A DNA stretch of 64,000 nucleotides from Escherichia coli (GTDB taxonomy: Bacteria; Pseudomonadota; Gammaproteobacteria; Enterobacterales; Enterobacteriaceae), in assembly GCF_041886205.1 (NCBI RefSeq), contig NZ_CP169029.1, one strand, 5' to 3'. Made by a program: the position numbers and the translations under genes. The notes under the pieces were generated by a model, which was not told the DNA's origin, did not search any database, and saw nothing but the letters and a program-made list of their open reading frames with translations. Positions 16,856 through 62,813 of this stretch are shown here, in pieces (positions within the stretch are counted from its first letter, which is position 1; the number at the start of each line of letters is the position of its first letter).

Positions 16856-17239
16856 TTAACGCTTCTCCCAGCCGCCCTGTTGCGCCGTAAATCCCAGTGC
16901 CTGCATAAACGCCGTCATCACACCGCGATCTTCCACGCCTGCATCCGCCATCCACCAGCATGAAACGCCAGGATTGTTACGCAAAACCTCTTCCAGCAGA
17001 TATTGCCCCACACCGCGACGTCGGGTGACTTCCCGCACACGCAGGGAATCCAGTGCTCCCTCGGTGCCGCTTAAGGTTACCCGTACGGCAGCGAGCAGGC
17101 GCTCGTTAAAACGCGCGGCGTAGATACGGTGGTTATCGTCAACCTGTAAAGAGGAAGGGGAATACTCCGGCCAGATCTTTTGCAGGTCAATCCGGTCCTG
17201 GTCGCTAAAGTTTTCTAATCGAATGATGGTCAGCTTCAT
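16856..17239 (-). CDS. panM: PanD maturation factor PanM/PanZ (GNAT fold)
   Basis: 127 aa ORF matching remembered YhhK/PanM; lies between livJ and livK on the opposite strand as in K-12. Confidence 0.88.
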   Translation of the reverse strand: MKLTIIRLENFSDQDRIDLQKIWPEYSPSSLQVDDNHRIYAARFNERLLAAVRVTLSGTEGALDSLRVREVTRRRGVGQYLLEEVLRNNPGVSCWWMADAGVEDRGVMTAFMQALGFTAQQGGWEKR

Positions 17240-17662
17240 GGGTAACCCGTGTAAATCACAAAAGTGGAACCAGTGTAGCGAAATAATTTAATCGGAGGCT
17301 TTCTCTTTTTTCTTTCTTTTGGCAGGTGATTAATTTTTTAACAGCAATAATTACAAAGTTAAAACATTAGAGAATGAAAAATACCCAGCATAATCCCCTG
17401 AATGGTAGTGAATTATTCCGCCCTTCGTGCCGTTATTTTATGCTGACAAAGGCACTTTTTTCTGTTTATCTATCAATAAATTCAGAATATTATCTGTTCT
17501 TAATCGACTGAAAAATATGGATTTTAATCGCTATTATCACAAAATACTGCGCTAAACCCTTAATCAGACAGGCAAAAACAGTGCAGTATAAAAAAAGAAC
17601 AGTCTGATTTGTTAACACATAAAAACAAAGCAACACAACATCACGAATGGGGATTTTTGACT

Positions 17663-18772
17663 ATGAAACGGAATGCGAAAACTATCATCGCAGGGATGAT
17701 TGCACTGGCAATTTCACACACCGCTATGGCTGACGATATTAAAGTTGCCGTTGTCGGCGCGATGTCCGGCCCGATTGCCCAGTGGGGCGATATGGAATTT
17801 AACGGCGCGCGTCAGGCGATTAAAGACATTAATGCCAAAGGGGGAATTAAAGGCGACAAGCTGGTGGGCGTGGAATATGACGACGCCTGCGACCCGAAAC
17901 AAGCCGTTGCGGTCGCCAACAAAATCGTTAACGACGGCATTAAATACGTTATTGGTCATTTGTGTTCTTCCTCTACCCAACCTGCATCAGATATTTACGA
18001 AGACGAAGGTATTCTGATGATCTCGCCGGGAGCGACCAACCCGGAGCTGACTCAACGCGGTTATCAATACATCATGCGTACTGCCGGGCTGGACTCTTCC
18101 CAGGGGCCAACGGCGGCAAAATACATTCTTGAGACGGTGAAGCCCCAGCGCATCGCCATCATTCACGACAAACAACAGTATGGCGAAGGGCTGGCACGTT
18201 CGGTGCAGGACGGGCTGAAAGCGGCTAACGCCAACGTCGTCTTCTTCGATGGCATTACCGCTGGCGAGAAAGATTTCTCCGCGCTGATCGCCCGCCTGAA
18301 AAAAGAAAACATCGACTTCGTTTACTACGGCGGTTACTACCCGGAAATGGGGCAGATGCTGCGCCAGGCCCGTTCCGTTGGCCTGAAAACCCAGTTTATG
18401 GGGCCGGAAGGTGTGGGTAATGCGTCGTTGTCGAATATTGCCGGTGATGCCGCCGAAGGCATGTTGGTCACTATGCCAAAACGCTATGACCAGGATCCGG
18501 CAAACCAGGGCATCGTTGATGCGCTGAAAGCAGACAAGAAAGATCCGTCCGGGCCTTATGTCTGGATCACCTACGCGGCGGTGCAATCTCTGGCAACTGC
18601 CCTTGAGCGTACCGGCAGCGATGAGCCGCTGGCGCTGGTGAAAGATTTAAAAGCTAACGGTGCAAACACCGTGATTGGGCCGCTGAACTGGGATGAAAAA
18701 GGCGATCTTAAGGGATTTGATTTTGGTGTCTTCCAGTGGCACGCCGACGGTTCATCCACGGCAGCCAAGTGA
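17663..18772 (+). CDS. livK: Leucine-specific periplasmic binding protein LivK
   Basis: ORF 17609..18772; start at [23 protein letters not shown] signal peptide (17663) gives the remembered 369 aa protein; paralog of livJ. Confidence 0.92.
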
Positions 18773-49354: not shown

Positions 49355-51820
<2,466 letters not shown>

Positions 51821-51836
51821 GTTCACTAAAAAACAG

Positions 51837-51866
51837 AACGGGGCCAAAGGGTCCCGTTTTTTTTCG
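51837..51866 (+). terminator. glgP rho-independent terminator
   Basis: Stem aacggggcc/ggtcccgtt with loop aaag followed by a run of eight T. Confidence 0.8.
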
Positions 51867-51936
51867 CCATCATTTCGGAAAAGTGTCCAGAAGGGGCAAG
51901 GGGACTCGGGGAGTATAATTTCGCCATTCAGAAAGA

Positions 51937-53454
51937 ATGGAAAGAATAATGCAAAACAGAAAATGGATTTTGACCTCGCTGGTAATGACTTTTTTCGGCA
52001 TCCCCATACTGACGCAATTTTTGGCAGCGGTTGTTGCTATGCTGGGGGGCGGGCTTGCCGCTATTCTTGAGGTTTGCAATTTACTCTTTACGCCAGCAAT
52101 TTATCTTCTACTCAACGTCTTTATGCTGACTCTGGGGGCGATAATAATATTTTTCTCTGGTCGCGTGTGGGCGGGCGATAGTGCACCAGAAAAAAAAGAA
52201 ATAGCCGTCTGGCGACAATGTCTTTTTTTAGTACCTGCTTTATTCACCCTGGTTGGCTGGATAATCACGCTACATCTGGCAGATTATCAATTTCGCCAGA
52301 TGGGAGACGGTTGGTTGGCAAACCTTATGCTTCCCTGGTTGGGCATTTTTTTAGTCTCATTAGTGGGTGGTGAGTACTGGTGGATAGTCATTATACCCGT
52401 TGGCGCGCATATCAGTTTTTCGCTGGGGTACGGTTGGCCGACCAGACATCTTTTAACGGGCACGTCCGGGTTACGTTGCCGTAATTCCCTCTTGTTTATC
52501 CTTCTCATGCTTGGTTTTGTCGCCGGTTACCAGGCTTATTTATATAAACAGCTTAATCCCGGCGTCGGTGTCCGCGAAAATATTGATACCTGGGCCTGGC
52601 GACCCGATAAACTCAATAATCAACTGACACCATTACGTGGTAAACCGCAAATTCAGTTTACGCAAAACTGGCCGCGACTCGATGGTGCTACGGCGGCGTA
52701 CCCAATTTATGCCTCTGCCTTTTATGCGTTGAGCGTTATACCGGAAGATTTTCACACCAGGGAATATCTGGAGAACTCTCATACCCCCGATGCATATAAC
52801 AGGATTGTTAAAGGTGATGCCGATATTATTTTTGTGGCGCAACCCTCCGGTAGGCAGAAAAAACGCGCTGAGGAATCGGGCGTCACTTTGCTATACACGC
52901 CATTTGCCCGTGAAGCATTCGTTTTCATCGTCAATGCGGATAATCCGGTTAATTCCCTGACTGAACAACAGGTGCGTGACATCTTCAGTGGTGCAATTAC
53001 CAACTGGCGTACTGTTGGCGGTAACGATCAGGAGATCCAGACCTGGCAACGCCCGGAAGACTCTGGCAGCCAGACGGTGATGCAATCACAGGTCATGAAA
53101 AATGTCCGCATGATCTCGCCGCAGGAAACAGAAGTGGCAAGTATGATGGAGGGAATGATTAAAGTCGTTGCCGAATACCATAATACAAAGAACTCAATTG
53201 GCTACACCTTCCGCTATTACGCCACGCAAATGAACGCTGACAAGAATATCAAATTGTTAGCGATTAACGGTATTGCACCCACTGCGGAAAATATCCGTAA
53301 CGGCAAATATCCGTATATCGTCGAGGCATTTATGGTAACGCGGGAAAATATGACCTCAGAAACACAAAAATTGGTGGAGTGGTTTTTAACGCCGCAGGGG
53401 CAGAGCCTGGTGGAAGATGTAGGTTATGTGCCGATGTATAAGACGCTACCTTAA
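51937..53454 (+). CDS. Polytopic membrane domain fused to a C-terminal PstS-like (phosphate-binding-protein fold) periplasmic domain; K-12 has only the yzgL pseudogene here
   Basis: 505 aa ORF; N-terminal ~200 aa hydrophobic, C-terminal region with PBP-like motifs (DGATAAYPIY..., SGSQTV). A TATAAT-like element lies ~25 bp upstream. Start may be M1 (51937) or M5 (51949). Confidence 0.75.
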   Translation: MERIMQNRKWILTSLVMTFFGIPILTQFLAAVVAMLGGGLAAILEVCNLLFTPAIYLLLNVFMLTLGAIIIFFSGRVWAGDSAPEKKEIAVWRQCLFLVPALFTLVGWIITLHLADYQFRQMGDGWLANLMLPWLGIFLVSLVGGEYWWIVIIPVGAHISFSLGYGWPTRHLLTGTSGLRCRNSLLFILLMLGFVAGYQAYLYKQLNPGVGVRENIDTWAWRPDKLNNQLTPLRGKPQIQFTQNWPRLDGATAAYPIYASAFYALSVIPEDFHTREYLENSHTPDAYNRIVKGDADIIFVAQPSGRQKKRAEESGVTLLYTPFAREAFVFIVNADNPVNSLTEQQVRDIFSGAITNWRTVGGNDQEIQTWQRPEDSGSQTVMQSQVMKNVRMISPQETEVASMMEGMIKVVAEYHNTKNSIGYTFRYYATQMNADKNIKLLAINGIAPTAENIRNGKYPYIVEAFMVTRENMTSETQKLVEWFLTPQGQSLVEDVGYVPMYKTLP

Positions 53455-53556
53455 GCAGGATAATCATATGGATACCGGTATTATTCACCTGAACGCGGCG
53501 AATGTTCGTTTTGTTTATCAACCATTTACACGCGACCAGCGGAAGAGGGGGTAATT

Positions 53557-54333
53557 ATGCAACCCAGCCCCGCCATGCAGGCATTAATTGAGCAGATTTA
53601 TTATATTTTTCGTCGTTATCCTGTGCCATCGAGATTTCATGTTTGTTGTCCTTACTGTTTTAGCGAAGAACAACAACAAGCCTTAAGAGGGGTTTCACTG
53701 CGTGCCATACCTTTTCCTTTATTACATGCCTGGGGAACAAGTATTGGCCCTAACCCACAAAATGATGATGAGATTCGCTATTTATTACCCAGATTGTTTG
53801 AATTAATTGCCCAAAGGCAATTTCCAGGCATTTATGAAGGCTGCTGTTTACAGAGAATAGCAGAGGCAGATAACCAGAACTGGCGAAGGGATGAACTACA
53901 AATAATTAGCGATTTCGCCTATTTATATATGCAGGATTGGGTGTCGGCTAAGGAAGTCGTGGAACTGGAAATAATATTAGAAATGTTTTATCGCGGTGGT
54001 ATAAAGATTGAACCCTTACTTGACTCTATTATGTCCATTTCCGGTTACTGGCCGACGGCGTCTATGGCATGTTTGCTCTGGCGTAACAGTAAAGAATACG
54101 TCGAAAATAGCGATTTTGAGCAGAGTGATGATAATAAAACTATTACCACCCAAATCAATACTTGGGCTAGAAACAATCATCCTTTGCTGAAAGAAAGAGC
54201 GCGGCAAGCGATTGAGAACCCACTAAAACAGCCCGAACCAATGACAGAATATCAAGTCTGGGAAGACGACTGGATGATTGATGAGTGTTTATGCGCGATG
54301 TATGACGCATCACCTGAACAATCAGGACAATAA
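53557..54333 (+). CDS. Hypothetical cytoplasmic Cys-containing protein, AT-rich gene
   Basis: 258 aa ORF with strong SD (agaggggg) and no TM segments; codon usage visibly AT-rich compared with flanking glg/glp genes; no family recognised by eye. Confidence 0.65.
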   Translation: MQPSPAMQALIEQIYYIFRRYPVPSRFHVCCPYCFSEEQQQALRGVSLRAIPFPLLHAWGTSIGPNPQNDDEIRYLLPRLFELIAQRQFPGIYEGCCLQRIAEADNQNWRRDELQIISDFAYLYMQDWVSAKEVVELEIILEMFYRGGIKIEPLLDSIMSISGYWPTASMACLLWRNSKEYVENSDFEQSDDNKTITTQINTWARNNHPLLKERARQAIENPLKQPEPMTEYQVWEDDWMIDECLCAMYDASPEQSGQ

Positions 54334-54335
54334 AG

Positions 54336-54935
54336 ATGAAGAAAATCAGACTTTATATTTATCCGCTATATCTCGGCTTTGTTATTGTGCCGTTGTTGGT
54401 ATGGCCGACGGTGGTTGCGCTGGTTGTTGTTGGTATCACACTGAGTTTTCTGATGGAGATGCTGTTCTCAAATTCGTTCATGCACAGGCGTATTTCCCTT
54501 CTGGAATTACAACTTGGGTTATTGGCTGAATATACGCTTTTGTTCTGCGCCATATGTTACGTTGGTTGGCAATTTGCTTCCAGAACTCAATCTGAATTGA
54601 AAAGCAGACTGCATTGTTGGTTGGTATTTGCACCAGTTTATTTCTGGTTGTTCCTGTGGGATATCATTTTCTATGTCGCGCCAGCGAAAATTACATTGCT
54701 GGAAAATATGCGCAGTTTCTTTCTGACCGTTGTCTGGCTCCCACTGAATTTTTCGCCATTTTGGCCTCAGCCGTGGACTGACTTTATCGGTCCGATAAGT
54801 GCACAGCTTGGGTTTGCGTTAGGATATTACTGCCATTGGCGCAGCAAAAATAGAAGCCAGAGGCTGAAGTGGGGGGAGTGGGGAACGTGCCTGAGTTTTG
54901 TTACGTTGGGTATGATGGCGTGGGCTTTACGGTAA
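54336..54935 (+). CDS. Hypothetical small polytopic membrane protein
   Basis: 199 aa ORF starting 3 bp after the previous stop; 4-5 predicted hydrophobic helices; AT-rich. Confidence 0.6.
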   Translation: MKKIRLYIYPLYLGFVIVPLLVWPTVVALVVVGITLSFLMEMLFSNSFMHRRISLLELQLGLLAEYTLLFCAICYVGWQFASRTQSELKSRLHCWLVFAPVYFWLFLWDIIFYVAPAKITLLENMRSFFLTVVWLPLNFSPFWPQPWTDFIGPISAQLGFALGYYCHWRSKNRSQRLKWGEWGTCLSFVTLGMMAWALR

Positions 54936-54984
54936 TTCTCTGACTCAAAAAGTAGGTCAGATTGTTGACAAAGTGCACTTTGTT

Positions 54985-55066
54985 CATGCCTGATGCGGCG
55001 TGAACGCCTTCTCAGGCCTACAAAATCATGCAAATTCAATACATTGCATAAACCACGCATCAGGCA
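54985..55066. repeat. REP elements between the accessory module and the glpD 3' end
   Basis: tgcctgatgcggcgtgaacgccttctcaggcctaca (54988..55022) matches the REP consensus; a partial inverted unit (cgcatcaggca) lies near 55056. Confidence 0.7.
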
Positions 55067-55128
55067 ATTTTGTGTTTATCATCAGTCTCAGGTCAGATTG
55101 AAATCTGACCCGGCCACCTTACGTTAAA

Positions 55129-56634
55129 TTACGACGCCAGCGACAACTTCTGCTGCGTATACTCCACCAGCCATTGGCTAATGCGTGACTGCTGTTGCGC
55201 ATTCAGCCACATGCCTTGTTTTGTGCGACGCCACAGGGCATCGTCGGCGCGGCGGACCCATTCGTGATCCACCAGGTATTTCAGTTCCGCTTCGTAGAAC
55301 TCATGACCGAAATCCTCCCCGAGGTCGCTTACCGTCCCCGCATTGCCGAGCAGCAGCTCGCTGTTGCTGCCGTAAGTGCGTGCGTAATGACGCGCCAGCG
55401 ATTCGGTCAGGAACGGGTAACGGCGGCGCAGGCGGGCGGCGTAGTCATCGCGGTCGCCCTCGATGGCACCACCCGGCAGCACGCTCTCTTTCGTCCACGC
55501 CGGGCCAATGCCCTGATAATACGGCGTCAGTTTTTCCAGCGCATGTTCCGCCAGTTTGCGGTAGGTGGTCAGCTTACCGCCGAATACCGACAGCAGCGGT
55601 GCTTTGCCGTTTTCATCATGGATATCAAGGGTGTAATCACGGGTAATGGCTTGCGGCGAGTCGGACTCATCATCACACAGCGGACGCACACCGGAGTAGG
55701 TCCAGACGATATCGTCACGGCTTAGCTGCTTTTTAAAGTGCGCGTTATACACTTTCAGCAGGTAGTTGATTTCACTCTCTTCAATCTTCACCGCTTTTGG
55801 ATCGCCTTTGTATTCCACATCGGTGGTGCCGATGATGGAAAACTCGTCCATCCACGGGATCACGAACACAATACGTTTATCTTCGTTTTGCAGAATGTAG
55901 GCTTGCTTCTGGGTATGCACGCGTGGCACCACAATATGGCTGCCTTTGATCAGGCGAATGCCATAAGGCGAAGGCAGGTGCATCCCGTCGTCGAAGAACT
56001 GCTTCACCCACGGGCCGGTAGCATTAACCAGGCCGCGCGCCTGCCATGTATATTTTTTGCCGGTATCGATATCTTCCGCTTCCACAATCCACAGGCCGTT
56101 TTCGCGGCGAGCAGAGGTGGCGCGAGTCCGAGTAAGCACTTCGCCGCCTTTACGCACCACCATCTGGGCGTTGGCGAGTACCAGACGGGCGTCGTCTACC
56201 CAACAGTCAGAATATTCGAATCCGCGCTTAATTTCCGGTTTTAACACTGAGTTTGCGCCAAAACGCAAACCGGTTGATCCCGGCAGGCTGGTGCGTTTAC
56301 CCAGATGATCGTACATAAACAGACCAATGCGAATCATCCACGCCGGGCGCAGATGCGGACGATGCGGCAGGCGAAAACGCATCGGGAAGGCGATATGAGG
56401 GGCCATTTTCAGTAGCACTTCACGTTCAGCCAGCGCCTCGCTGACCAGGCGGAATTCATAGTGCTCAAGGTAGCGCAGGCCACCGTGAATGAGTTTTGAA
56501 CTGGCGGAGGAGGTCGCGCAAGCGAGATCCTGCGCCTCCAGCATCAGCACGGATAAACCGCGTCCAGCGGCGTCTGCCGCGATACCAGCACCATTGATGC
56601 CGCCCCCTATCACAATCAGATCTTTGGTTTCCAT
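55129..56634 (-). CDS. glpD: Aerobic glycerol-3-phosphate dehydrogenase GlpD
   Basis: ORF 55129..56649; start METKDLIVIGGGINGAGIA (56634) gives the remembered 501 aa protein. Confidence 0.95.
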   Translation of the reverse strand: METKDLIVIGGGINGAGIAADAAGRGLSVLMLEAQDLACATSSASSKLIHGGLRYLEHYEFRLVSEALAEREVLLKMAPHIAFPMRFRLPHRPHLRPAWMIRIGLFMYDHLGKRTSLPGSTGLRFGANSVLKPEIKRGFEYSDCWVDDARLVLANAQMVVRKGGEVLTRTRATSARRENGLWIVEAEDIDTGKKYTWQARGLVNATGPWVKQFFDDGMHLPSPYGIRLIKGSHIVVPRVHTQKQAYILQNEDKRIVFVIPWMDEFSIIGTTDVEYKGDPKAVKIEESEINYLLKVYNAHFKKQLSRDDIVWTYSGVRPLCDDESDSPQAITRDYTLDIHDENGKAPLLSVFGGKLTTYRKLAEHALEKLTPYYQGIGPAWTKESVLPGGAIEGDRDDYAARLRRRYPFLTESLARHYARTYGSNSELLLGNAGTVSDLGEDFGHEFYEAELKYLVDHEWVRRADDALWRRTKQGMWLNAQQQSRISQWLVEYTQQKLSLAS

Positions 56635-56664
56635 GCTGCCCTCATTCACTTTCGTTAAAGCTCA

Positions 56665-58041: not shown

Positions 58042-58800
58042 ATGAAACAAACACAACGTCACAACGGTATTATCGAACTGGTTAAACAGCAGGGTTATGT
58101 CAGTACCGAGGAACTGGTGGAGCACTTCTCCGTCAGCCCGCAGACTATTCGCCGCGACCTCAACGAACTGGCAGAGCAAAACCTGATCCTGCGCCATCAT
58201 GGCGGTGCGGCGCTGCCTTCCAGTTCGGTTAACACGCCGTGGCACGATCGTAAAGCCACCCAGACCGAAGAAAAAGAGCGCATCGCCCGCAAAGTGGCGG
58301 AGCAAATCCCCAATGGCTCGACGCTGTTTATCGATATCGGCACCACGCCGGAAGCGGTGGCGCACGCGCTGCTCAATCACAGCAATTTGCGCATTGTGAC
58401 TAACAATCTCAACGTTGCTAACACGTTGATGGTAAAAGAAGATTTTCGCATCATTCTCGCCGGTGGCGAATTACGCAGCCGTGATGGTGGGATCATTGGC
58501 GAAGCAACGCTCGATTTTATCTCCCAGTTCCGCCTCGATTTCGGCATTCTGGGGATCAGCGGCATCGACAGCGACGGCTCGCTGCTGGAGTTCGATTACC
58601 ACGAAGTTCGTACCAAGCGCGCCATTATTGAGAACTCGCGCCACGTTATGCTGGTGGTTGACCATTCAAAATTTGGCCGTAATGCGATGGTCAATATGGG
58701 GAGCATCAGCATGGTTGATGCCGTCTACACCGACGCCCCGCCGCCAGTAAGCGTGATGCAGGTGCTGACGGACCACCATATTCAACTGGAGCTGTGCTGA
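58042..58800 (+). CDS. glpR: Glycerol-3-phosphate regulon repressor GlpR (DeoR family)
   Basis: 252 aa ORF with N-terminal HTH; matches remembered GlpR. Confidence 0.95.
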   Translation: MKQTQRHNGIIELVKQQGYVSTEELVEHFSVSPQTIRRDLNELAEQNLILRHHGGAALPSSSVNTPWHDRKATQTEEKERIARKVAEQIPNGSTLFIDIGTTPEAVAHALLNHSNLRIVTNNLNVANTLMVKEDFRIILAGGELRSRDGGIIGEATLDFISQFRLDFGILGISGIDSDGSLLEFDYHEVRTKRAIIENSRHVMLVVDHSKFGRNAMVNMGSISMVDAVYTDAPPPVSVMQVLTDHHIQLELC

Positions 58801-60380
58801 TCCTGCACGGCTTCCCACGTCAGACCAAAACGCGCCAGGTATTTGCGTAGCCGATCCGCGTCATTGACGCTGGCTTTGCCCTGGCGCGAAACATCAAAAA
58901 GCTGTCGTCCGGCAGCAGAAAGCGACTTTGCCTGGCGGCAGATAGCGATAACGTGTTCCAGTTGCAGCCGATCAAAGAGGTCGATATTTTCCGCTTCAGC
59001 GCCCAACAGCTGTGCAAGCACGGAAGGGCGACTTTCCTGCCAGTTATAGCGCAGACGGTTTATCTCATCTTCCACCACGTCCAGAGTGATGCGTCCGCTA
59101 GTGGCAAAGGTGGCCATCCGCGTGACGCTGGCAGAAAGTTCGCGAAAGTTACCGCGCCATGTTGCCTGGGGAGAGGTCGCGAAGGCCAGCCAGGCACGCC
59201 GCGCTTCGGTGTTAAAACGTACGCTGTCGCCAGTGAGTGAGGCGTGGCGCTCCACTTCATAATCCAGGTTGGGTTCAATATCTTCCTGGCGCTGGCTTAG
59301 ACCCGGCAGGGTGAAGGTCCAGAGATTGATCCGCGCGTACAAGTCTTCGCGAAATTTGCCTTCGGCAACCAGCTGGCGCAAATCGCGCACCGTTCCGGCG
59401 ATAAGCTGAAAATCACTGCTCACCTGGCGATCGCTGCCAAACGGATAAAAGGTTTTTTCTTCAATGGCTTTAAGCAGCATTGCCTGTTCGTCTGTGCCCA
59501 GTTCGCCAATCTCATCAAGAAACAACATTCCGCCGTTGGCGCTGCGTAATAATCCTTCACGAGATTCCCGCGCCCCGGTAAACGCGCCTTTCACATGACC
59601 AAACAGCGTCGACATGGCGGTATCGCCGCGCAGGGTTGCGCAGTTCACTTCCACAAACGCGCCGCTAAACTGATGCCGCGCCTGTTTTAATTCAAATATA
59701 CGTCGCGCCAGAAATGACTTACCTGCACCGGTCGGGCCATTAAGCAGAATTGGCGCGCGGGATTTGATCGCTACTTTTTCAATCTGCTCAATCATGCGGT
59801 TGAAGTGGGGGTTACGCGTGGCAATGCCGGACTTAAGAAAATCAAGCGTTTGCTGGCGTTCCTCGGCAAAGCGGCTGGCGATGGCGTTATAACGGCTTAA
59901 ATCGAGATCGATAATCGTCACTTCACCTGCGCCGCGCGGCTGTTCTTTTTTGCGCGGAGGGGAAGATTGTATCAGCCGGGCGGGCAGGTAACGCGCTTCC
60001 GCCAGCAGAAACCAGCAAATCTGTGCGACGTGGGTGCCAGTGGTGATGTGAATTAAATAATCTTCTTTATCAGGTTGAAACGCGTAGCCACGGGCGAAAT
60101 CATGCAGGCAGGCGTAAACCTCTTCGAAATCCCACGGGTTATGCAGTTCAGTCTCAACGCCTACCACTTCTGTTTCTGGCGAAACGCTGACGATATCGCG
60201 TTTAAGCGTTTCAAACAGCGAGCGCGAGCGGGCGTCATGCAATAATTCCAGTCGATCGATGACCAACGATTCTTGCTGGCATAAACAGAGTGTTGGACGC
60301 CATTTCGACCAGCGCTGACTGCCGCGCCCGGCATAATCCAGTACGGTGCCGACAAAGCCAAAAGCCACTGTTTTACGCAT
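58782..60380 (-). CDS. rtcR: Sigma-54-dependent transcriptional activator RtcR
   Basis: 532 aa ORF with AAA+ sigma-54 activator motifs ([14 protein letters not shown]); 3' end overlaps glpR convergently. Confidence 0.93.
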
Positions 60381-60566: not shown

Positions 60567-61793
60567 ATGAATTACGAATTACTGACTACAGAAAATGCCC
60601 CGGTAAAAATGTGGACCAAAGGCGTGCCGGTAGAAGCCGATGCGCGTCAGCAACTTATTAATACGGCGAAGATGCCGTTTATTTTCAAACATATTGCGGT
60701 AATGCCTGATGTACACCTGGGTAAAGGTTCCACCATTGGTAGCGTGATCCCGACCAAAGGGGCGATTATTCCGGCGGCGGTGGGCGTGGATATTGGCTGT
60801 GGAATGAACGCGCTGCGTACCGCGTTAACGGCGGCAGACCTGCCTGAAAATCTGGCGGAGCTGCGTCAGGCGATTGAAACTGCCGTGCCGCACGGGCGTT
60901 CAAATAATCGTAGCCATCGTGATAAAGGCGCATGGGAAAATCCGCCTGTTAATGTCGATGCGAAATGGGCTGAGCTGGAAGCTGGTTATCAGTGGTTAAC
61001 GCAAAAATATCCCCGTTTCCTTAACACTAACAACTATAAACACCTGGGAACGCTGGGAACGGGTAACCACTTTATTGAAATCTGCCTTGATGAGTCGGAC
61101 CAGGTGTGGATTATGCTGCACTCCGGTTCACGCGGAATTGGTAATGCCATCGGGACTTACTTTATCGATCTGGCGCAAAAAGAGATGCAGGAAACGCTTG
61201 AAACATTGCCGTCGCGTGATCTGGCGTACTTTATGGAAGGTACGGAATACTTTGATGATTACCTGAAAGCCGTGGCCTGGGCGCAGCTTTTTGCCAGCCT
61301 TAACCGCGATGCGATGATGGAAAACGTGGTAACGGCGTTGCAGAGCATTACGCAGAAAACGGTAAGACAGCCACAAACGCTGGCGATGGAAGAGATCAAT
61401 TGTCACCACAACTATGTGCAAAAAGAACAGCACTTTGGCGAAGAGATCTATGTGACGCGTAAAGGCGCGGTGTCTGCGCGTGCTGGTCAATATGGAATTA
61501 TTCCAGGGTCGATGGGAGCGAAAAGCTTTATCGTCCGTGGGCTGGGAAATGAAGAGTCGTTCTGTTCGTGCAGCCACGGTGCCGGGCGGGTAATGAGCCG
61601 TACTAAAGCGAAAAAAATGTTCAGCGTGGAAGATCAAATTCGTGCCACCGCGCATGTGGAATGCCGTAAAGATGCCGAAGTGATCGACGAAATCCCGATG
61701 GCGTATAAAGATATTGATGCGGTGATGGCGGCACAAAGCGATCTGGTGGAAGTTATCTACACCCTGCGTCAGGTGGTGTGTGTAAAAGGATAA
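60567..61793 (+). CDS. rtcB: RNA-splicing ligase RtcB
   Basis: 408 aa ORF matching remembered RtcB. Confidence 0.95.
   Translation: MNYELLTTENAPVKMWTKGVPVEADARQQLINTAKMPFIFKHIAVMPDVHLGKGSTIGSVIPTKGAIIPAAVGVDIGCGMNALRTALTAADLPENLAELRQAIETAVPHGRSNNRSHRDKGAWENPPVNVDAKWAELEAGYQWLTQKYPRFLNTNNYKHLGTLGTGNHFIEICLDESDQVWIMLHSGSRGIGNAIGTYFIDLAQKEMQETLETLPSRDLAYFMEGTEYFDDYLKAVAWAQLFASLNRDAMMENVVTALQSITQKTVRQPQTLAMEEINCHHNYVQKEQHFGEEIYVTRKGAVSARAGQYGIIPGSMGAKSFIVRGLGNEESFCSCSHGAGRVMSRTKAKKMFSVEDQIRATAHVECRKDAEVIDEIPMAYKDIDAVMAAQSDLVEVIYTLRQVVCVKG

Positions 61794-62813
<1,020 letters not shown>

Follow-up and report, generated by a model that had tools for sequence, protein, structure and literature searches.

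A hypervariable, recombining cassette gene in the glgP-glpD island of Escherichia coli and its large unnamed family

Introduction

Two small adjoining genes of no recognised family, ORF2 and ORF3, lie between glgP and glpD in the stretch of Escherichia coli chromosome analyzed here (64,000 nucleotides, hereafter the window). The initial annotation read them as a tightly linked pair, in which a soluble cysteine-containing protein is followed by a small multi-spanning membrane protein, and mentioned immunity or accessory pairs as a layout of this kind. The locus thus raises two questions: whether the two genes belong together, and what ORF2 might do.

Results

A polymorphic island between glgP and glpD

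The 3.3 kb from 51800 to 55130 are 100% identical to strain wlxctx60, where PGAP annotates, in order, glgP, a 'PstS family' protein, two hypothetical proteins and, on the opposite strand, glpD. ORF1, ORF2, and ORF3 form a polymorphic island flanked by glgP and glpD, with the following features:

51937-53454, + strand: ORF1, 505 aa (PGAP start 51946), first gene of the island
53481-53554, + strand: 3' remnant of a 236-aa gene, inside the 102-bp ORF1-ORF2 spacer
53557-54333, + strand: ORF2, 258 aa, ATG start; RefSeq WP_001183166.1, 'hypothetical protein' in wlxctx60
53611-54150, + strand: divergent core of ORF2, 55-65% nucleotide identity to common alleles (sliding-window identity)
54296-54333, + strand: final ~12 codons of ORF2, common to the 3' end of the O157-type PstS2 gene; right cassette junction
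54336-54935, + strand: ORF3, 199 aa, ATG start; RefSeq WP_000723863.1, 'hypothetical protein' in wlxctx60
54982-55018, - strand: REP-like element between the convergent ORF3 and glpD, outside both genes

ORF1 combines five to six N-terminal transmembrane helices, predicted by hydropathy, with a C-terminal PstS-like periplasmic binding domain (PBP_like_2, E = 1.6e-29; TIGR02136, 122.6 bits, under its cut-off of 206.6). Its dN/dS is 0.12-0.17 and its dS 0.17-0.44, compared to a dS of 0.02-0.10 for glgP. The other neighbor of the island, glpD (55129-56649), has a between-strain dS of 0.13-0.22, also above that of glgP; this raised synonymous divergence is consistent with hitch-hiking or recombination near a long-lived polymorphism. 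The REP-like element gave sub-threshold Rfam matches to naRNA4 (28.6 bits; gathering score 59.5) and CssrE, and Rfam recovered no RNA families inside ORF2 or ORF3. Promoter and terminator scans returned signals at or under chance level, and only trivial internal repeats were observed.

At least five architectures were found in the glgP-glpD interval:

Architecture A (this window): ORF1, ORF2, and ORF3 without the 236-aa gene; rare, in 36 of 5426 complete genomes at ≥80% query coverage
Architecture B: ORF1, the 236-aa gene, a 255-aa ORF2 allele, and ORF3
Architecture C (O157-type): ORF1, a 330-aa PstS-like lipoprotein (PstS2), and ORF3
Architecture D (B2 strains, e.g., Nissle): a fimbrial operon replacing ORF1, then the 236-aa gene, an ORF2 allele, and ORF3
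Architecture E (K-12): a deletion from ~52170 to 54871 that left yzgL behind

The O157 PstS2 lipoprotein carries the lipobox LLAGC and shares 57% identity with the ORF1 binding domain. In K-12, yzgL is a deletion remnant in which ~74 codons from the 5' end of ORF1 are fused to the last ~65 bp of ORF3 (L022). The operon that stands in place of ORF1 in Nissle 1917 (L020, 1-2614) encodes a chaperone and fimbrial subunits; strain GF130 (L019, 1-1809) shows further variation at the island site, with a fimbrial operon upstream of ORF1.

The remnant upstream of ORF2 comprises the last ~21 codons of the 236-aa cassette gene, which is found whole in most other strains. Homology by blastn to L002 and L020 begins at 53480/53481, within the 3' end of their 236-aa gene, and the remnant frame ends LNAANVRFVYQPFTRDQRKRG where the intact gene ends RLNAANARFVYQPFTRDQRARG. 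PGAP labels the intact gene (L002, 4668-5378; L003, 4669-5379) 'YbbD family protein' or 'hypothetical protein' depending on the genome. We rejected its assignment to the YbbD family, and with it a bridge to Rhs orphan immunity genes: NF007301 scored 22.6 bits against a cut-off of 373, and tblastn against the K-12 rhsD-ybbD region detected no similarity to ybbD.

ORF2 and ORF3 are genuine genes of distinct character

Neither protein matched Pfam or PADLOC at E ≤ 1. NCBIfam gave no match for ORF2 and, for ORF3, a best match that stayed sub-threshold (NF002597, E 0.079; 13 bits, cut-off 120); a search of PDB sequences with ORF2 profiles was likewise negative. The initial annotation was therefore right to recognize no family, and no toxin or nuclease domain, in either protein, and no homology to a housekeeping family emerged. 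Its description of the composition also holds: ORF2 has a GC content of 0.417 (GC3 0.378) and ORF3 of 0.450, compared to 0.526 for the whole window, and the 15 lowest-GC positions of a 1379-bp sliding frame all start within 53051-53751, so that no other segment of this length in the window is poorer in GC. A second low-GC kilobase (GC 0.442) lies at 17001-18000.

Sequence comparisons show that both are real genes under purifying selection. Among 5426 complete E. coli genomes, 2958 carry ORF2-like DNA and 3823 carry ORF3-like DNA spanning at least 80% of the respective gene. Most carrier strains have intact ORFs, with all sampled rows annotated as intact CDSs except for one IS1 disruption. Pairwise dN/dS is 0.13-0.27 for ORF2 and, in informative pairs, 0.22-0.38 for ORF3.

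The contrast of a soluble cysteine-containing protein with a small multi-spanning one was likewise borne out. ORF2 has no hydrophobic segment by hydropathy, a cysteine cluster at C30/C31/C34, the motif EIRYLLPRLFEL, a pI of 4.6, and a net charge of -15. Its AlphaFold2 (AF2) model is all-alpha, with 13 helices (pLDDT 91, pTM 0.89), and forms a helical-repeat scaffold with no enzyme-like structural match; ORF2 is thus predicted to be a cytoplasmic, acidic, all-alpha protein. ORF3 is basic (pI 9.45) and polytopic, with four to six hydrophobic helices by hydropathy and AF2 secondary structure, the AF2 model itself having six helices at pLDDT 45. Homologs of ORF3 were found in Escherichia and Shigella only. 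An hhalign comparison of ORF3 with the membrane domain of ORF1 was colinear over 149 columns (probability 11%, E 0.003) and paired GPISAQLGFALGY with IPVGAHISFSLGY at that probability; the BLASTP comparison was not significant. On this alignment, ORF3 may be a distant paralog of the ORF1 membrane domain.

ORF2 is a recombining cassette gene

The ORF2 allele of the window shares 61-64% amino acid identity with the common E. coli alleles, from which it is separated by a saturated dS of 1.7-2.2, compared to ~0.09 for glgP. Alleles of the window type (≥80% DNA identity) occur in only ~16 genomes. The window protein is 98% identical to the second of two tandem ORF2-family paralogs (262 and 267 aa) in another E. 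coli genome (L023, GCA_021486775.1), and tandem paralogs of the family also occur in L005 and L009. The window thus carries a rare allele of a cassette gene.

On either side of the divergent core, identity to the type B locus L002 rises to 90-97% (53526-53610 and 54151-54300). Homology by blastn to the locus L004 picks up again at 54296, and the C-terminal tails of ORF2 (YDASPEQSGQ) and O157 PstS2 (YEASPESSGQ) are closely similar; the last ~12 codons of ORF2 appear to derive from the 3' end of an O157-type lipoprotein gene. The cassette junctions accordingly fall in remnants of adjoining genes. In L023 (2200-2254), the window-like paralog ends ...ASSESSESSESSESSGQ, compared to ...ASPEQSGQ in the window ORF2: at this right-hand junction, an (SSE)n repeat has expanded by 9 bp. 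We conclude with high confidence that ORF2 is a hypervariable cassette gene subject to recombination and belongs to a large family without a name; alleles would be exchanged by homologous recombination through the conserved 5' and 3' ends.

The pairing of ORF2 with ORF3 is incidental

As the initial annotation stated, the two genes are separated by only 2 bp (TAA-AG-ATG). Such spacing could reflect translational coupling within a functional two-protein module, in which the soluble protein docks to or regulates the membrane protein. The 2-bp gap does recur in all ORF2-containing architectures, two ORF3 allele classes exist, and a check of co-occurrence with the PstS-like ORF1 found that B2 strains such as Nissle keep ORF2 and ORF3 together without ORF1. 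We nevertheless consider such a module improbable. In O157, ORF3 is present without ORF2 and follows the unrelated PstS-like lipoprotein gene through an equally tight junction (0-2 bp) and the same tail codons. The ORF3 of the window is closest to the O157-type allele (82% amino acid identity, compared to 65-67% to type B) and does not co-vary with ORF2 class. Relatives of ORF2 elsewhere travel alone: outside Escherichia none had an ORF3-like neighbor, and none of 24 tight downstream neighbors was a multi-spanning protein.

The reading of the genes as a pair is therefore not supported, ORF3 being the constant element of the locus, and the pairing is incidental rather than co-evolved. We conclude with high confidence that ORF3 occupies a fixed 3' position in the island, as part of a membrane and PstS-like frame. 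It probably works with PstS-like periplasmic proteins, namely ORF1 and, in O157, also the lipoprotein PstS2.

The ORF2 family is acidic, widespread, and recurrently linked to RNA repair

A profile search of 1.84 billion representatives recovered 1545 proteins at E ≤ 1e-3 (427 at E ≤ 1e-10), mostly of 230-280 aa. Near-invariant residues of the family are Y15, F18, C30, C34, P78, R79, E113, F187, and W203, and its consensus, LDVCTxCC ... E.K(Y/H)FLPRxLEL, contains the cysteine cluster and an FLPRxLE motif. Sixty-three diverse relatives gave no credible Pfam match and no NCBIfam match. Acidity is general in the family (median pI 4.95, median net charge -13), with 89% of members below pI 5.5 compared to 23% of neighboring proteins.

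Bacteroidota contributed most of the 80 loci that a scan of GTDB species genomes yielded; the rest belong to Planctomycetota, Verrucomicrobiota, Chloroflexota, Bacillota, and Alpha- and Betaproteobacteria. Carriage by phages or plasmids was considered and set aside: two viral-contig scans and tblastn against phages gave no match, and plasmid matches were limited to two megaplasmid relatives and one mislabeled chromosome.

The commonest recurrent neighbor was the RNA ligase RtcB. Among 74 loci with a called family gene, eight had it within 6 kb and seven had it adjacent; RlaP came second, with 15 ORFs. The main survey of bacterial RNA-repair operons, which include the RtcB-RtcA, RtcB-RlaP, and Pnkp-Hen1 types, is that of Burroughs and Aravind (2016), cited by two later papers (PMC12776372; PMC6514570), and the ORF2 family may already be listed in that survey. 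Four lineages carry the family gene (FAM) in such settings:

Flavobacteriaceae: RtcB-X156-FAM-(CCA-adding-like NTase+HD)-RlaP-RlaP-...
Acidovorax (L062): FAM-RtcB-RlaP-MoxR-vWA/metallopeptidase
Verrucomicrobia (L085): FAM-RtcB
Pirellulaceae (L075): Hen1-x-FAM-x-Pnkp

The flavobacterial members group in a single clade and the remaining three each fall apart from it, with the signature residues kept in all. By our rough estimate, chance would give fewer than 0.1 such adjacencies in 74 loci. Approximately 86% of sampled family loci have no RNA-repair gene nearby and no conserved partner, and the E. coli protein sits in an enterobacterial clade distant from the RNA-repair-linked members. Its link to RNA repair consequently rests on family-level homology. 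No toxin gene was seen beside family members in ~95 contexts (judged by Pfam among the top 25 families listed for 99 neighbors, so that single cases could escape).

The flavobacterial RtcB-RlaP operons also hold two more conserved proteins that Pfam does not match, X156 (~156-211 aa, three loci) and a ~231-aa protein (six loci), along with an SDR-like 451-aa protein; the extra proteins were seen in L100 (5525-5992 and 8532-9224), L086, L096, L074, L103, and L104. Elsewhere, one member lies within a type I restriction-modification and reverse-transcriptase island (L012), and a conjugative plasmid (L108) carries the family gene among arrays of small hypothetical genes. On a metagenomic contig (L009, 2705-7570), three tandem paralogs of 252, 307, and >184 aa adjoin two GreA/GreB-like genes and a DUF4149 membrane protein.

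In the window, rtcR (58782-60380, - strand), rtcB (60567-61793), and rtcA (61794-62813) lie downstream of ORF2. The distance from ORF2 to rtcB is 6.2 kb, with glpD and glpEGR between, and rtcB belongs to a separate transcription unit. This nearness may be due to chance, since the tandem pair on another enterobacterial contig (L005) is not near rtcB.

Discussion

What might ORF2 do? Our preferred reading, to which we give a probability of only about 0.35, is that ORF2 is a stand-alone, immunity-like inhibitor of an RNA-targeting nuclease. It draws on the acidic, non-enzymatic scaffold predicted for the protein, the RNA-repair context of its relatives, and population genetics of the immunity type, namely hypervariable alleles, paralogous arrays, and a sporadic distribution across phyla. 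ORF2 would act alone, binding and neutralizing a basic nuclease that targets RNA and reaches the cell from competitors or mobile elements, either as an orphan immunity-like inhibitor or as a nucleic-acid mimic. In other phyla, RtcB/RlaP/CCA-type and Pnkp/Hen1 operons would have taken up members of the family to block the nuclease during RNA repair. The immunity or accessory idea mentioned in the initial annotation thus gains some support for ORF2, through its divergent alleles, mosaic structure, tandem paralogs, patchy spread, and acidity; the part that concerned ORF2 and ORF3 as a pair is not supported.

Several observations argue against an inhibitor. Immunity proteins normally track variable toxins, and the conservation across phyla of the cysteine cluster, P78-R79, E113, and W203 is unusual for such proteins. 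No toxin gene adjoins any family member in the contexts surveyed, most sampled loci lack a nearby RNA-repair gene, and the E. coli clade is distant from the members that have one. Whole-gene dN/dS is well under 1, and E. coli K-12 has rtcBA yet lacks the whole island.

The same conserved motif argues for a single conserved molecular function, as expected under the main rival explanation: that ORF2 is an accessory subunit of RNA repair, which might, for instance, sense damaged tRNA or serve RtcB, RlaP, or Pnkp/Hen1 as an adaptor or regulator, and would act in E. coli in trans with rtcBA. That the family gene is embedded in the operons of two unrelated ligase systems, and that rtcB lies 6.2 kb from ORF2 in the window, would fit such a role. 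We consider it unlikely given that most family loci lack RNA-repair genes, that the E. coli alleles differ by 35-40% in protein sequence, and that ORF2 is absent from 45% of genomes, which presumably keep rtcBA-type loci. Its acidic charge also speaks against direct RNA binding, and the enterobacterial tandem pair lies away from rtcB. Absence from 45% of genomes would also suit a near-neutral passenger, decaying or poor in function and kept by linkage in a recombination hot spot, as would the low GC content (suggestive of foreign origin), the IS1 disruption in one strain, and the loss of the island from K-12 without known cost, with yzgL left as a remnant. The literature on yzgL and the O157 locus tags yielded nothing beyond one passing microarray entry; one study (PMC2907692) gives a low microarray signal for an O-island 133 gene in EDL933, which would also suit a passenger. 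This explanation is very improbable in our view: dN/dS is held at 0.13-0.27 across alleles with saturated dS, ORF2 is full length and intact in 2958 genomes, its AF2 fold is confident, and its invariant residues are common to relatives in other phyla.

Extended to the whole family, the inhibitor reading becomes a more doubtful proposition: that the family is an unrecognized, widespread component of defense against RNA-damaging toxins, in which its acidic helical proteins serve as decoys or inhibitors. It would be wired into RtcB/RlaP and Pnkp/Hen1 operons in Bacteroidota, Planctomycetota, Verrucomicrobiota, and Betaproteobacteria, and be present in E. coli as divergent, balanced, recombining alleles near rtcBA. 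Little is known of what physiologically triggers bacterial RNA-repair operons (RtcB, RlaP, Pnkp/Hen1) or of their partners. The ORF2 family is large and unnamed, recurs in these operons, and is also found, as a hypervariable cassette, in over half of E. coli genomes; it thereby offers a cheap and tractable handle on the nucleases that they answer.

What appeared as a mystery gene pair is better described as a recombining cassette site within a fixed membrane and PstS-like frame, a picture that explains both yzgL of K-12 and O-island 133 of O157. The O157 island lies at the same glgP-glpD site and also has ORF1 and ORF3, but carries a PstS-like lipoprotein where the window has ORF2. ORF1 shares the PBP_like_2 fold of PstS phosphate-binding proteins; unlike canonical PstS, it falls under the TIGR02136 cut-off, is fused to an N-terminal domain of five to six transmembrane helices, and lacks pstCAB partners.

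Compared with accessory genes of RNA-repair operons, ORF2 is similar in having relatives that are operonic with RtcB, RlaP, CCA-adding-like NTase/HD, MoxR-vWA, and Pnkp/Hen1 across four lineages, and different in that the E. coli gene lies outside the rtc operon and most family members stand alone. At 258 aa, it is larger than classic RNase immunity proteins and matches no Pfam Imm family. It also departs from the orphan immunity genes of Rhs, CDI, and colicin arrays and of acquired interbacterial defense clusters, in that no cognate toxin was found beside any family member and its motif is strongly conserved across phyla. Yet its resemblance to these genes is broad: ORF2 is small, predicted to be cytoplasmic and non-enzymatic, and acidic in a manner typical of nuclease inhibitors, and it combines extreme allele divergence within the species and tandem paralogous or heterogeneous arrays with exchange by recombination at conserved flanks and a patchy phyletic spread.
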